DNA of 64,000 bases from a bacterium (GTDB taxonomy: Bacteria; Zhuqueibacterota; Zhuqueibacteria; Residuimicrobiales; Krinioviventaceae): the NCBI GenBank assembly GCA_963693055.1, contig OY843751.1:5632001-5696000 (forward strand), read 5' to 3'. The translations under genes were made by a program, and so were the position numbers. Positions 2,812 through 64,000 of this stretch are shown here, piece by piece (the stretch's first letter is position 1; every line of letters begins with the position of its first letter). The notes below the pieces were generated by a model that had not been told where the DNA came from, made no database searches, and saw nothing but the letters and a program-made list of their open reading frames with translations.

Positions 2812-3832
2812 ATGGCCGGGAATACTCTTGTGGCCCTTGTCTCTTTTGTATGCGACTGCAATTCGCCTTAGAAATTTTTGTTACGACCGGGGAATTTTCA
2901 AATCCTATTCTATATCCACAAAAATTATCAGTGTGGGAAACATAACCGTTGGCGGTACAGGCAAAACACCTACAGTAATTACCCTTGCCCGAGAGCTGGT
3001 TAAGCAGGGTAACCGCGTGTGCGTTCTCAGCCGCGGATATGGCAGAAAATCCAAAGGCACCGTAATTGTCTCTGATGGAGAATCCATTTTGGCACCAGTC
3101 GACCAATCGGGTGACGAACCATTCCTGATAGCAACCGCACTACCCAATGTTCCTGTCGTTGTAGACAGTGACCGCGTAAGAGGCGCGCAAATGATAAAAG
3201 ATCGTTTTCAATCTGACATTATAATACTTGACGATGGATTCCAGCATCGTCGTTTAAAACGAGACCTGGATATTGTTACATTCAACGCGGCAAGCCCCAT
3301 AGGTAATGGTATGGTAATACCCGCCGGCCCCTTGAGGGAACCCCTGCAGAATTTAAATCGCGCGCATGTATTTTGGAGCAATGGCAGTACACAGAATGAT
3401 CTGCCAAAGCAGACCCAACAATCTGACAAACCTGTAATCAGGGCTAATTATCAAACCATTGGTTTGTTCAATCAGGCTGCATCAATGAATCAGGATCAAC
3501 TCGACAATAAAGATATAATTGCATTCTCTGGTTTAGGGAATCCTGAAAATTTCAAAACCACTTTGCGGGGAATGGGTGCAAATTTAAAACTGTTCAAGTC
3601 TTTTAAAGACCATTACAATTACAATCAACAGGATATACAAAACCTGCTGGAGCAACAAAAAAAATACGACGCAGCTTTTATTATTACAACTGAAAAAGAT
3701 TGGGTCAAGCTACCCAAAGATTTACCAGAGCCACAAAACTGGTACTGTTTGCAAATAGACATCATTCCCCGGAATATGGATGATTTTGTGATCCTGATCA
3801 ATAGTGTCTCAGAATCGTACAAAAATACTTGA
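2792..3832 (+). CDS. lpxK: Tetraacyldisaccharide 4'-kinase
   Basis: SVGNITVGGTGKTP, SRGYG, GDEP, LDDGFQH, PAGPLRE and TTEKD motifs. Confidence 0.97.
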   Translation: MVYFQRKWPGILLWPLSLLYATAIRLRNFCYDRGIFKSYSISTKIISVGNITVGGTGKTPTVITLARELVKQGNRVCVLSRGYGRKSKGTVIVSDGESILAPVDQSGDEPFLIATALPNVPVVVDSDRVRGAQMIKDRFQSDIIILDDGFQHRRLKRDLDIVTFNAASPIGNGMVIPAGPLREPLQNLNRAHVFWSNGSTQNDLPKQTQQSDKPVIRANYQTIGLFNQAASMNQDQLDNKDIIAFSGLGNPENFKTTLRGMGANLKLFKSFKDHYNYNQQDIQNLLEQQKKYDAAFIITTEKDWVKLPKDLPEPQNWYCLQIDIIPRNMDDFVILINSVSESYKNT

Positions 3833-11310: not shown

Positions 11311-12231
11311 ATGAAAAGGCTATTTTGCATAATACTGTTTCTTGTTATTGGAACCTTAATCCCACCAGGTATTTCTGCTCCAAATGAATTCTTGATCCAG
11401 CAAAAAGAGAAAATCAGAGTCTATTATGCTCTAACAGACTCTGCAAATGCACGTATTGCTCTTGATAAGATGCTCGGATATTATAACGAAATATCTCATG
11501 ACCTTAGTATAAAAAATACTGACACATTACACATATATATCATACCTTCCCGCCAAATGTTCAAAGAAATCATTGACGGCCAACTTCCAAACTGGACGGG
11601 TGCATTTGCGTCACCAGCAAGCAACAGCATGTATGTTCGATCTCCCAATTGGGAGCATGACAGCAATTTCATCACCAACCTGGTCCATGAGCTGCTACAT
11701 TTGGTCATACATGAAAAAATGGGTGTTGCTCGTCTACCCCGCTGGATGGATGAAGGTCTGGCCATCTTTTATTCAAATGATTACAAATGGATATACAGCA
11801 CGGCGTTGTCAAAAGCTTTTGCAACGCGTTCTGTGCTGCCGCTTTATGATATTGATCGTGTTCTCAGTTTTCATCGGGCAAGAGCAGAGCTGGCATATCA
11901 GCAAAGTTACTCCGCTGTACAATATCTTTTGGCTACCTATGACATCGATGCAGTCAGAACAATTCTGTCAAGCCTGCAAAATCATGATTCTATTGACATG
12001 GCTTTTCAAAACGCTACCGGCAGTACATATGCTGTATTTGAAAAAGAGTGGCTTGACTATGCAAAAAAGAAATACAAATGGACCTGGTTGAACGATTTTG
12101 ACTCATATATCTGGACACTTATTATAATACTCTTCTTTATAGCAGGAATTGTTATAAGAATTCGTAACAGAAAAAAACTCGCAGAATGGGAAAAAATACC
12201 TCCCGACATTGAACTGTTAGATGAAGAATAA
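11311..12231 (+). CDS. Peptidase MA-family zinc metallopeptidase with signal peptide and C-terminal TM anchor
   Basis: HELLH...PRWMDEGLA...AYQQS; hydrophobic N- and C-termini. Confidence 0.85.
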   Translation: MKRLFCIILFLVIGTLIPPGISAPNEFLIQQKEKIRVYYALTDSANARIALDKMLGYYNEISHDLSIKNTDTLHIYIIPSRQMFKEIIDGQLPNWTGAFASPASNSMYVRSPNWEHDSNFITNLVHELLHLVIHEKMGVARLPRWMDEGLAIFYSNDYKWIYSTALSKAFATRSVLPLYDIDRVLSFHRARAELAYQQSYSAVQYLLATYDIDAVRTILSSLQNHDSIDMAFQNATGSTYAVFEKEWLDYAKKKYKWTWLNDFDSYIWTLIIILFFIAGIVIRIRNRKKLAEWEKIPPDIELLDEE

Positions 12232-12269
12232 TCAGTTGTATTCATTCCTGTTATTTCATATATTTACCA

Positions 12270-13187
12270 ATGAAAAATTTCAAGAATAATTTTGAATATT
12301 TCCTGGTATTAGCTGTTGGAAAACTTATCCGTATCCTGCCACTTTCTGCCGCATTGACTGTTGGCAAAGGTATTGGATTGATGTTCTATTATGTAATTCC
12401 AGTCCGTAAAAAAGTAGCAATTGAGAACCTAACAAACGCATTTCCTGAAAAATCTCTTCAAGAAATTGATCAAATCGTTAAAAACACATATATAAACCTT
12501 GCCCGCAACATGATAGAGTTTATGCGGACCCCCATTCACACCAAAGATTTTTTAGACTCGCACGTACATTTTGTTAATCCGGAAATACTAGATCAGGCAT
12601 ATGCGCAAAATAAAGGCGGCTTGTGCTTAACCGGGCATTTTGGAAACTGGGAATTGATGGGTGCGGCAATCTCGTCCAAAGGATTTCCCATGACAGGATT
12701 GGCAAAAGAACAGCGAAATAAAAAAGTGGGGAAACTCGTCGAAGACTATCGTAAAAAAACCAACCTGGGTACCATCCCCATGGGAATGGGTGTTAGAGGT
12801 GTTTTAAAAGCATTAAAAGAAAAAAAATTCGTGGCCATAGCATCAGACCAGGATGCACATTCAAAAGGTGTATTTGTAGATTTTCTGGGCAGACCATCAT
12901 CCACTGCACCTGGCGTTGCAACTTTGGCGTTAAAATCATGTGCGCCCATCATTTTTGGGACCTGTGTTCGTGATAAGGGTGGACATCATACCGTATACTT
13001 GGAACTGATAGATCACTCGGATCTTGAAGGCGTTAATGAAGAAAATATAAAAATCCTTACCCAGCGTCATGCAACCGCACTTGAAAAAAATGTACGGAAA
13101 TGGCCCGATCATTGGTTATGGATGCATAAACGATGGAAAACCAAACCTCCTGTAGAAAATGTATCGGAACCGGTAAATGGATCATAA
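12270..13187 (+). CDS. lpxL: Lipid A late acyltransferase (LpxL/HtrB family)
   Basis: GHFGNWE, DQD, VDFLG and WLWMHKRWK motifs. Confidence 0.88.
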   Translation: MKNFKNNFEYFLVLAVGKLIRILPLSAALTVGKGIGLMFYYVIPVRKKVAIENLTNAFPEKSLQEIDQIVKNTYINLARNMIEFMRTPIHTKDFLDSHVHFVNPEILDQAYAQNKGGLCLTGHFGNWELMGAAISSKGFPMTGLAKEQRNKKVGKLVEDYRKKTNLGTIPMGMGVRGVLKALKEKKFVAIASDQDAHSKGVFVDFLGRPSSTAPGVATLALKSCAPIIFGTCVRDKGGHHTVYLELIDHSDLEGVNEENIKILTQRHATALEKNVRKWPDHWLWMHKRWKTKPPVENVSEPVNGS

Positions 13188-60438: not shown

Positions 60439-60522
60439 TTCTATTCACACAAACACTTGCATTACACGATTTTATTTATTTATTTACAATATCTGTTAAT
60501 CTTAAACTACCAAGGTACGTAT

Positions 60523-61272
60523 ATGAATGAAATAAATGTAATAAATAATATTGGACAAATATTGGGTCTGGAACTTAAACAACTTGATCCACAGGATATT
60601 ATGGACAATGATGCGTTTCTCCGCAAAAAAGGGGAATACCAACACGATTCAATTCTTTTAAGAGGATTTAGTATTCTAGGTAATAATGTAACAACGTTGT
60701 GTCTGGATTATCTGCAATTGGATGAAAACATTATTAAACTGCTGCTACAGTTGGAAAACCTGGAGAACCTGAGCCTGCGTGGTACATTGATAGAGTCTTT
60801 TTCTTTTTTAGAAAAGATGAAAAACATCAGCATTCTGGATCTGTCTTTTAACCAGCTTGAAGATATATGGTTCTTGAAAGATATGAAAAACCTGACAGCT
60901 TTATATCTGAGTTACAATATGATTAGAAAAGGGAAATATCTTGCAGATATGGAAAACCTGACAGCCTTGGACTTGAGTGCAAATCAAATTGAAGATTACA
61001 GTTTTCTTGAAACTCTAAAAAACTTGAAATGCCTGTATTTGAGTTACAATCAACTTGAGGATGCGTCTTTTTTAAAATCTCTGAACACGCTTGAACATCT
61101 GGATCTCAGTAAAAATCAGATTAATGATACTTCTTTTTTAGCGGCTCTTCCCAATCTGACATCGCTGGATCTAAGTGAGAATGGAATTACAGATACATCT
61201 TTTTTAAAATCACTAAAAAAACTAAAATCTTTTTCAATACATGAAAACCCGGTCATTGATCCGTTAAAATAA
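60523..61272 (+). CDS. Leucine-rich repeat protein (22-aa internalin/SDS22-like repeats)
   Basis: About 7 LxxLxLSxNxI/LxDxxFL repeats; no signal peptide from ATG 60523. Confidence 0.88.
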   Translation: MNEINVINNIGQILGLELKQLDPQDIMDNDAFLRKKGEYQHDSILLRGFSILGNNVTTLCLDYLQLDENIIKLLLQLENLENLSLRGTLIESFSFLEKMKNISILDLSFNQLEDIWFLKDMKNLTALYLSYNMIRKGKYLADMENLTALDLSANQIEDYSFLETLKNLKCLYLSYNQLEDASFLKSLNTLEHLDLSKNQINDTSFLAALPNLTSLDLSENGITDTSFLKSLKKLKSFSIHENPVIDPLK

Positions 61273-62167: not shown

Positions 62168-62350
62168 ACCTCTCCTCTCCTCTTGCATTATATTAAATTT
62201 CGTTTGTATAATATACAACAGATAGGGATTAAATGTGAAAAAAAAATGTTGACATTATTTAAAAAATTTATTTATTTAGAAAATAATAGGTGCAAGTTTT
62301 TTTCAATTATTTTTTGCAATTAAAAAATTTTTTAAGTCAATAAAAAATCC

Positions 62351-62411
62351 TACCCTTGGCAGTACGCTCTTTCAACAATCCGGAAAAAGCCGATCCCAGG
62401 GGTATTTTTTT
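62351..62411 (+). other. Structured leader element: stem with 36-nt interior followed by T7
   Basis: TACCCTTGG (62351-59) pairs with CCAGGGGTA (62396-404, one G-U pair), then TTTTTTT. Confidence 0.45.
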
Positions 62412-62462
62412 AACACTTTTCCTATTCATATCAAAAAATACTAATCTAACTTAATTAAGAAT

Positions 62463-63806
62463 ATGAATACTTATCAAGCCGGAAAAAGCTTCGAAGATAA
62501 ATTTTATGAATTAATTAGAGATGAACTTGAAAATGAAAGATTACCATTCAAATCTAAATATTGTAAATTATATAAACAAAAAGGTTATTATTCTAAAGAT
62601 AGAGAATCTGAAATAAAAATAGATATCTCTATTGAAATAAACTTTCCCAACCAATTATTTTTATTAGTTGCTTTCGAATGTAAAAATTATAATCATAGAA
62701 TACCAGTAAACGACATTGAAGAATTCGATTCTAAATTAAGACAAATTGAAGGTTTAAATGTAAAGGGGATTTTTGTATCATCAAGTAGCTTTCAAAAAGG
62801 TGCATATAACTTTGCAAAAAACAAAAGAATAGGCTTAATTAGATTATTAAATGATAATAAATTAAAATGGGAATTAAGCAGAACAGTTTCTTTATTTACT
62901 AATGAGAAAGCAAACATAAATTATGAACATATTGAAGAAATATTAACTACTGATGAATTCATTCATGACTATATAAATTTTTATGCAATTTGGGATAAAC
63001 AATATTCAATTAATTTCAATCATTACCTATTTACATTAATAAAAGATAGTATACCCAAAAATTTCTTTTCTCTTCACAAGGAAATAAAAAATAAAAATAC
63101 AACAAACGGAACTGTCCCTTTTATCCCTGAAGAAGACATTGAAAATGAAACTTTAAAAATACTGAAAGGAATTGATTATAACGGTTCGGCAGTCTCTCTG
63201 GATACAATTTGTGAAAATTTGATCAAAGACAATAGACTTAATTTTTACTATAAAGACTCGATTGGTCATGATCATCTTGGTTATGAGATACTAGGTAAAA
63301 TCTCTTTCGATCCAACAGAAATAATAATAGCAAAAGATATACAAAGTAGTTCATTCAGGCAAAGATTTACAATTGCACATGAATTAGGACATTTTTTTTT
63401 ACTCCATAATAAGTTCATAAAAAATGAATACTATTCCGAAATTGATTATAAAAATAATGAAGAATATCTAATTCCAAATTCAAACATTAAAAAACTTGAA
63501 ACTCAAGCTAATATATTTGCTAGTCAATTGCTAATGCCAAAATTACATTTTATTAAAAAATTCTTTGAGTTACTCAAGAAAGAAAATATGAAAAATCGTG
63601 GTTTTGGATTTTTATATGTAGACAACCAACAAGGTAATTATAATAAATTCCTTATAATTACCAACTCATTAAGAAATCACTTTTATGTATCAAGGAAGGC
63701 TGTTATTATTAGACTAAAAGAGCTTAATTTGATAAATGAAGAAAGTGATAATAATTTAAATATCTCTTTAAGGCAAACTAAAAATAAAATTAATGACTGG
63801 TTTTAA
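62463..63806 (+). CDS. Mrr-type PD-(D/E)XK endonuclease fused to an ImmA/IrrE (M78) metallopeptidase
   Basis: GKSFE...IDI...ECKNY...GIFVSSSSF; RQRFTIAHELGH...ETQANIFASQLLMP; markedly AT-rich. Confidence 0.88.
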   Translation: MNTYQAGKSFEDKFYELIRDELENERLPFKSKYCKLYKQKGYYSKDRESEIKIDISIEINFPNQLFLLVAFECKNYNHRIPVNDIEEFDSKLRQIEGLNVKGIFVSSSSFQKGAYNFAKNKRIGLIRLLNDNKLKWELSRTVSLFTNEKANINYEHIEEILTTDEFIHDYINFYAIWDKQYSINFNHYLFTLIKDSIPKNFFSLHKEIKNKNTTNGTVPFIPEEDIENETLKILKGIDYNGSAVSLDTICENLIKDNRLNFYYKDSIGHDHLGYEILGKISFDPTEIIIAKDIQSSSFRQRFTIAHELGHFFLLHNKFIKNEYYSEIDYKNNEEYLIPNSNIKKLETQANIFASQLLMPKLHFIKKFFELLKKENMKNRGFGFLYVDNQQGNYNKFLIITNSLRNHFYVSRKAVIIRLKELNLINEESDNNLNISLRQTKNKINDWF

Positions 63807-64000
63807 ACAACAAATACCTTATAATATAAAAAACAAAACATCCATGTTTAAATTTGAGAAATTTTTGTATTTTCTGGAGTACAAAGTCAAGTTGTTTTAT
63901 TCAATGTTCAAATTTGAATTTAATAAAAATATAAATCAAAAAACATCAATAATCATTTTCGTTTTTTCATGCAAAACTCAGTTAACCTCAAACTCGTACA

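Follow-up and report, generated by a model that had tools for sequence, protein, structure and literature searches.

An Mrr-like nuclease joined in one chain to a CapP/ImmA-type zinc peptidase: a probable anti-phage protein and possible variant of protease-gated nuclease defence

Described systems with related peptidases and nucleases

The characterised proteases of the ImmA/IrrE/CapP type (M78 family) cut a repressor or, in RosmerTA, act as an antitoxin (available parts of PMC10904395, PMC13228613 and 10.1101/2022.05.11.491447). RosmerTA and PD-lambda-2 are multi-gene systems in which such a peptidase is accompanied by a separate toxin-like gene (available parts of 10.1101/2022.05.11.491447 and 10.1101/2022.05.12.491691, respectively), and Mrr_cat nucleases serve as effectors in defence systems (available parts of 10.1101/2024.07.02.601686 and 10.1101/2022.05.11.491447). 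Nucleases that are activated by proteases have precedent (available parts of 10.1101/2025.07.28.667249 and 10.1101/2025.11.14.688446), and a 2026 CapP preprint, in its available part, expects proteases that are wired directly to effectors (PMC13228613). Our literature search found no description of an Mrr_cat-M78 fusion such as the one analysed here; supplements of the DefensePredictor, language-model and modularity-network studies might list it. The fusion is not described in the available parts of PMC13228613, 10.1101/2022.04.27.489752, PMC10904395, 10.1101/2022.05.12.491691, 10.64898/2026.10.19.760177, PMC8649781, PMC3632139, PMC2701414, 10.1101/2025.11.14.688446, 10.1101/2025.07.28.667249, 10.1101/2025.09.30.679545, 10.1101/2024.07.02.601686, 10.1101/2022.05.11.491447, 10.1101/2025.01.08.631726 and 10.1101/2025.01.08.631966.

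The fusion protein and its chromosomal slot

The window (the whole 64,000-nucleotide stretch of bacterial DNA that was analysed) carries at 62463..63806 on the + strand a gene with an ATG start, whose 447-aa product begins at the same Met as its homologs. Its N-terminal PD-(D/E)XK Mrr-like nuclease domain (aa 1-198, 62463..63056, +) has catalytic residues E11, D54 (in IDI) and E72-C-K74, and gives a Pfam match to Mrr_cat at aa 32-126 with an E value of 1.1e-8; its C-terminal M78 zinc peptidase plus HTH (aa 219-430, 63117..63752, +) matches Peptidase_M78 at aa 286-418 with an E value of 8.9e-12. By alignment the latter contains the HELGH zinc motif (H306, E307 and H310; 63378..63392, +) and the third zinc ligand E346 (63498-63500, +) at the start of E346-x-Q-A-N-x-F-A..LLMP. 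Both Pfam matches lie above the curated cut-offs and both motif sets are complete, so the first-pass annotation was correct in seeing an intact PD-(D/E)XK core joined to an intact HELGH metallopeptidase. The first half thus has the helix-1 Glu, the D, the ExK and the restriction-endonuclease fold (Z 10-11) that define PD-(D/E)XK/Mrr_cat members, and the second has the HEXXH and distal Glu followed by an HTH that define the ImmA/IrrE M78 family. In fold searches the nuclease half (aa 1-198) matched AF1548 (Z 11.3, rmsd 3.7, 118 residues aligned), Can2 (Z 10.6, rmsd 2.9, 125 aligned) and Cdn1 (Z 10.5), with NucS and MspJI as further neighbours, and aa 221-438 matched CapP (7t5t; Z 15.3, rmsd 4.0, 179 aligned) and PprI (8sln; Z 11.9, rmsd 4.3, 163 aligned). 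The CapP sequence itself matches the peptidase half with an E value of 2e-13, and the PADLOC capP model does so at 5e-20. The AlphaFold2 model of the fusion has a mean pLDDT of 86.6 and a pTM of 0.78, which would fit a fixed arrangement of the two domains; residues 131-150 around R140 are of low confidence (pLDDT 64 and 52).

The GAF domain of PprI spans about 100 residues (available part of PMC10904395). The fusion has no such domain, because its C-terminal tail is too short: 23 residues follow position 424 (median 19, range 0-40, across 262 homologs), and although the fold-alignment ranges enter GAF numbering, the stretch of the model that they cover there is too short to form a GAF domain.

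How does this protein compare with the systems named above? CapP is the best structural and sequence match of its C-terminal half, and the two agree in HEXXH..E, in the HTH, in where the switch loop lies and in an Arg placed seven residues ahead of the first His; unlike the CBASS regulators CapP-CapH, the fusion lacks a GAF domain, a CapH-like XRE partner and a regulated operon, and it has an added N-terminal nuclease. IrrE/PprI-DdrO and ImmA-ImmR likewise have an M78 peptidase with an HTH, but the fusion is without PprI's ssDNA-activation GAF and its XRE pairing has been lost. RosmerTA and PD-lambda-2 resemble it in having an M78-type peptidase inside an anti-phage system; the fusion differs in having no conserved partner gene, its RmrA matches are confined to the peptidase stretch, and its peptidase is not XRE-fused, whereas that of PD-lambda-2B is. 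Lamassu-Mrr, Avs, Epona and type IV Mrr-like enzymes also have an Mrr_cat catalytic domain without a cognate methyltransferase, but the partner here is a peptidase instead of a STAND, SMC, CARF or base-reading domain. Next to their catalytic domain, type IV Mrr-like restriction enzymes have a separate one that reads DNA or its modification; the fusion begins with its catalytic domain and shows no reading domain in Pfam at E values up to 1. A type II restriction-modification system is not indicated either, as there is no methyltransferase at the source locus. The likeness to the trypsin-MBL pairs of Hachiman, Avs, Lamassu and DRT and to the Canu caspase-nuclease lies in the way the fusion is proposed to work, with a linked protease turning on a latent DNase, but the fusion combines PD-(D/E)XK with M78 and not MBL with trypsin or caspase, and it is one chain without a separate sensor ATPase or helicase; by analogy it may work like the protease-gated MBL nuclease pairs without belonging to them. 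PADLOC 2.0, a check proposed in the first-pass annotation, gave domain-level matches (15 models at E values up to 0.01, each to one domain) and no full-length system model. The fusion is therefore a member of the Mrr_cat and M78 families that stands outside CapP-CapH, ImmA-ImmR, RosmerTA, PD-lambda-2, type II restriction-modification and the MBL-protease pairs.

At 24.7% GC the fusion gene lies below both the window (39.5%) and the genome (39.4%), in agreement with the AT-richness first noticed by eye; among 4862 genome tiles of the same size just 6 have so low a value, and in 45 of 46 loci the fusion gene has a lower GC content than its flanks. It lies between a divergent TIM-barrel (AP_endonuc_2) gene and, past the window's end, a convergent alpha-L-rhamnosidase gene. 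The suggestion that further island genes might lie beyond position 64000 did not survive inspection of the downstream DNA, where GC returns at once to about 44% and the rhamnosidase gene is found, and a defence island continuing beyond the window is ruled out. No mobile-element gene is present among the neighbours of the fusion gene, and these neighbours, those past the window's end included, also contain no cognate DNA methyltransferase and no XRE/ImmR gene, as the first-pass annotation had stated for the adjacent DNA. In the same-genus genome G001 the same place (62410..63981 in the window) is occupied by unrelated DNA: flanks that are 88-89% identical to those of the source enclose about 2.06 kb with an NYN gene (L107 3038-3712, - strand) and a gene for a 406-aa DUF4062 protein whose C-terminal region is without annotation (L107 1798-3018, - strand). 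We take the NYN and DUF4062 domains to be defence- or toxin-associated; neither protein had a PADLOC match at E 1e-10. Of 167 genomes of its own phylum, one carries the full-length fusion gene, as do 4 of 401 genomes in the L002 genus. Its spread is patchy, and the slot is a swap site.

The left breakpoint of the slot comes directly after a hairpin (62341..62412, +; folding z -3.1) that was delineated by folding and pattern searches and has no gathering-level Rfam match. Copies of it, conserved across unrelated genomes, lie directly upstream of NYN genes in G001 (L107 about 3730-3794, -) and at L367 1501-1541 and L369 1501-1540; a tight hairpin pattern found 3 viral contigs, in 2 of which it precedes an NYN gene (L368 has the hairpin but no clear NYN ORF downstream), and matches to a loose pattern were mostly chance. 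We considered the hairpin as part of the fusion family and rejected this, since 0 of 63 other fusion loci carry it. At the source locus it was likely left behind by whatever filled the slot before, and the simplest reading is that the fusion gene replaced an NYN gene and inherited its leader; the hairpin may serve an NYN toxin as a leader or RNA antitoxin and would be an orphan at this place. A promoter scan did no better than shuffled sequence (17 versus 13.3), and a sequencing-run search gave no RNA holder of the fusion gene among the matches listed.

Some other features of the region were observed in passing. The 271-aa leucine-rich-repeat protein encoded at window positions 60457-61272 belongs to the backbone and not to the fusion unit, because it is common to G001. 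An intergenic stretch of ~300 bp at L001 about 12140-12500 (G000:C1 about 5702140-5702500) has many dispersed matches in G001 and G014 and is possibly a small repeated element. The source genome also has curli-type genes (CsgE/F/G and curlin repeats; L001 10409-16957 and L351), with 16409-16957 of L001 curlin-like by eye.

Conservation, natural variants and neighbourhoods of the family

A first homolog search gave 137 matches, and 109 of the best 120 were aligned after 11 partial ones were excluded. A profile search found 977 representatives at E values up to 1e-30, single-domain matches counted in, and nearly all of the best 150 of these span both domains; 307 full-length sequences, reduced to 262 at 70% identity, made up the set used for conservation. 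The fusion hosts span distant phyla. The ESM Atlas has automatically named clusters that combine these two Pfam families, so the architecture is present in databases but unnamed as a system. Phage and plasmid collections yielded 2 and 3 records, three of which are apparently Acinetobacter chromosomal DNA; NZ_CP104448.1 (4.1 Mb, listed as a plasmid) and CAKLQH020000007.1 (listed as phage) appear chromosomal from their housekeeping genes. A viral fold library gave single-domain matches only, and a DNA-level search of E. coli genomes with one homolog gave no match. Neither shorter nuclease-only forms nor longer fused ones turned up in dedicated searches; these negatives are weak because stand-alone nucleases were found through DNA loci (below). 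The family is real and widespread, with hundreds of diverse members, and apparently undescribed.

Both enzymes have been kept: of the 262 homologs, 259 have an intact nuclease catalytic set, 257 an intact peptidase set and 254 the two together, with E307 present in all 262. The D387-x-Q389-x-x-N392 motif at the start of the HTH (63621..63638, +) is family-specific in its conservation (D387 261/262, Q389 261/262, N392 260/262), a loose D-x-Q-x-x-N match being found in 4 of 72 unfused relatives. R299, seven residues before the first zinc His, is present in 231/262 and aligns with CapP R90 and PprI R85, the ssDNA-binding Arg of those proteins (available parts of PMC13228613 and PMC10904395). The loop that aligns with the CapP cysteine-switch loop (63405..63452, +) has D328 in 203/262 homologs; 70/262 have a Cys 14 residues past the second His, mostly with an acid four residues further on as in CapP. 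The fusion itself has Tyr324 and not Cys at this position; a cysteine switch is present in 33% of CapPs (available part of 10.1101/2022.04.27.489752). The least conserved part is the interdomain linker (aa 199-218, 63057..63116, +), with a conservation of 0.17 and a length of 4-29 residues.

The natural variants separate the two halves. Ten stand-alone nucleases of about 200 aa (L113, L120, L130, L131, L164, L174, L179, L185, L187 and L374) keep E-D-E-K, and no peptidase remnant lies downstream in the nine checked; they have no conserved partner, and some are in defence or prophage contexts (L187 near HNH, SNF2 and GmrSD genes, L164 near a TIR gene). The Mrr-like nuclease alone is a possible minimal single-gene system. 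R140 (62880..62882, +), beside the low-confidence loop, is the only nuclease position that is at least 80% conserved in fusions yet lost by the stand-alone nucleases (259/262 versus Arg in 2/10, six of the ten looking like one group and so not independent). Because it is lost without the peptidase, R140 ties the two domains together, and it is a candidate domain contact or self-cleavage site. A nuclease tree, from a quick, unfinished search and with low support, gave no direction for peptidase loss or gain. Conversely, HEXXH residues are gone from three nuclease-less relatives, which are close kin from a single locus and keep D-x-Q-x-x-N (3/3) and the switch Cys. Such dead members of the peptidase clade (L375, L376, L377 and L382; G383, G193 and G376) lie by a dusA-site integrase and adjoin a gene for a 647-aa UvrD-like helicase, with which they possibly form a two-gene module with a pseudo-protease sensor.

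Covariation within the nuclease domain links the conserved beta-hairpin tip (aa 43-49, 62589..62609, +) with the ends of two helices (90-97 and 113-123) in 8 of the top 60 pairs, where 0.9 are expected, and it is seen in both halves of the alignment. Since by fold topology these parts lie on opposite edges of the domain, we predict that they are a nuclease dimer contact; a homodimer prediction with zinc scored 0.16. There was no clear cluster of covariation between the nuclease and peptidase domains (best pair rank 50).

The neighbourhoods were studied in 61 full-length fusion loci, which came from the listed matches of a metagenome nuclease-motif scan (at least 119 stretches, at least 80 with flanks) and from other sources, with 3 duplicates removed. 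There is no recurring neighbour family among the 310 neighbours of these and of 11 nuclease-only loci, in which no cluster exceeds 3 members; this and the 254/262 with both catalytic sets support the proposed single-gene unit. With a profile built for this analysis, 3 of 45 evaluable fusion loci have an XRE gene no more than 600 bp away, compared with 32 of 66 unfused ImmA relatives, two of the three being antitoxins of HigB- or Gp49-type pairs, and none of the 45 has a fused XRE. The consistent XRE pairing that the first-pass annotation had held to speak against its own proposal thus does not occur. Defence-type genes lie within 3 genes in 16/54 fusion loci and 1/20 control loci (Fisher p 0.03), a comparison in which the defence-type list is post hoc, kin are not independent, Pfam cut-offs are slightly uneven and the control is 20 evenly spaced loci of one genome, G000 (no named system, one weak PADLOC hit and one DUF433 gene). 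Named defence systems alone give 6/54 versus 0/20, which is not significant (p 0.18). The six loci have type II RM (L007), Kiwa (L110), Hachiman (L117), retron type XI (L153), Gabija-type plus Qat (L181) and Olokun (L183), and ten more of the 54 have a defence-type domain but no named system; PADLOC was run mainly on neighbours that were blank in Pfam. Three more loci, from the sample of the L002 genus, have DUF4238, DUF3800 or a Tn3 transposase nearby. A DNA methyltransferase occurs within 3 genes in 2/54 loci (L007, with its own REase, and L166), and many fusion copies lie between housekeeping genes, as at the source locus. The neighbourhood support for defence is modest; judged from context, it is likely that the fusion has a defence role of some form.

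Possible modes of action

The reading we favour, though we rate it somewhat short of probable, is that infection triggers the latent peptidase of the fusion to cleave the chain it belongs to, and that this cleavage activates a dimeric nuclease. We chose it because catalysis is conserved in both halves, the XRE substrate is lost, a switch loop is present and R140 is fusion-specific. One chain, with an Mrr-like nuclease and a CapP/ImmA-type zinc peptidase, would then be a self-contained anti-phage effector. To judge from the CapP-like switch loop the peptidase would be latent at rest, and an infection cue, the least certain step, would trigger it; our leading guess is aberrant DNA, which R299, the HTH and the D-x-Q-x-x-N motif would recognise, with the nuclease domain perhaps standing in for the missing GAF. 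The substrate would be the protein itself, because the M78 peptidases whose substrates are known cut dedicated XRE repressors, and the fusion gene is not accompanied by one; the candidate cut sites are the loop around R140 and the linker at 199-218. Cleavage would switch on the DNase, predicted from covariation to be a dimer, and DNA degradation would presumably end in cell death or arrest. The cue is uncertain because PprI without its GAF neither binds ssDNA nor is stimulated by it (available part of PMC10904395), and the IrrE/CapP-style sensing of ssDNA or damage put forward at first is weakened by the missing GAF, only R299 and the CapP-like switch loop being retained. A more specific form, in which an M78 peptidase without GAF or XRE senses through a new pocket (which would be made of R299, D-x-Q-x-x-N and the fused nuclease), cleaves itself and frees a dimeric DNase, is possible but doubtful. 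Some features of the sequences count against the favoured reading: the linker, the least conserved part, does not look like a specific cut site, and the switch position is occupied here by Tyr324 and not by Cys.

Might the two enzymes instead act on different targets? The intact stand-alone nucleases suggest that a free nuclease domain may not need a lock. A nuclease selective for modified or abnormal DNA could act first, and its products could trigger the peptidase to cut in trans, its substrate being a conserved host protein or a phage repressor. Lit, for example, cuts host EF-Tu. In its available part PMC13228613 refers to Lit as a defence protease that cuts a host protein; the ten intact nucleases, several of them beside defence genes (L187 and L164), and the unconserved linker favour such an arrangement, and R140 could equally relay a signal from nuclease to peptidase. 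On the other hand, the family is not accompanied by any substrate gene, it occurs in hosts from distant phyla and no modification-reading domain was detected (Pfam, E up to 1), and we consider it rather unlikely. The dead-peptidase relatives in turn imply, by keeping D-x-Q-x-x-N, that the module has a role free of proteolysis. The peptidase-HTH part might then be a ligand sensor that frees or dimerises an uncut nuclease, proteolysis being secondary, for example in turnover or reset; D-x-Q-x-x-N is conserved as strongly as the catalytic residues, and the dead relatives keep D387/Q389/N392 and the switch Cys beside the helicase gene. But E307 in 262/262 and the full zinc site in 257/262 point to selection for catalysis, and the three dead relatives are close kin from one locus, which leaves this allosteric explanation improbable.

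An always-active peptidase that keeps the nuclease destroyed or bound, until phage shut-off or an inhibitor frees it, would make the protein a fused toxin-antitoxin. RosmerTA's antitoxin is a zinc peptidase (available part of 10.1101/2022.05.11.491447), and the peptidase part of the fusion matches RmrA models (best E 2.3e-14) and, below the family cut-off, an M78 repressor/antitoxin family; yet the CapP-like switch in 70/262 suggests a peptidase that is off at rest, and stand-alone nucleases exist without any peptidase, so we regard this as very unlikely. The gene might also have no part in defence and be mobile or selfish, with an ImmA-like anti-repressor acting on XRE repressors in trans and a nuclease working for the element. 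Among the 54 loci, 10 do have an integrase, transposase, relaxase, recombinase or prophage gene within 3 genes, L104 has an XRE gene 41 bp upstream, the L106 fusion sits between an integrase and a cI-type repressor, and the nearest unfused relatives are XRE-paired. Against this, the pairing is gone in 42 of 45 fusion loci, the source locus has no mobile-element gene, and defence genes occur in the same mobile contexts; a purely mobile role thus seems unlikely.

To return to self-cleavage, the fusion has one gene with two point-mutable active sites and natural nuclease-only and dead-peptidase variants, which make its mechanism cheap to test. It is probably directed against phage, possibly as a variant of protease-gated nuclease defence. 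If the favoured reading is true, an ImmA/IrrE-type protease would here act directly on an effector and not on a transcription repressor, and the family would be a repressor-cutting switch that has been rewired straight to a killing nuclease, with both enzymes kept and the repressor lost.
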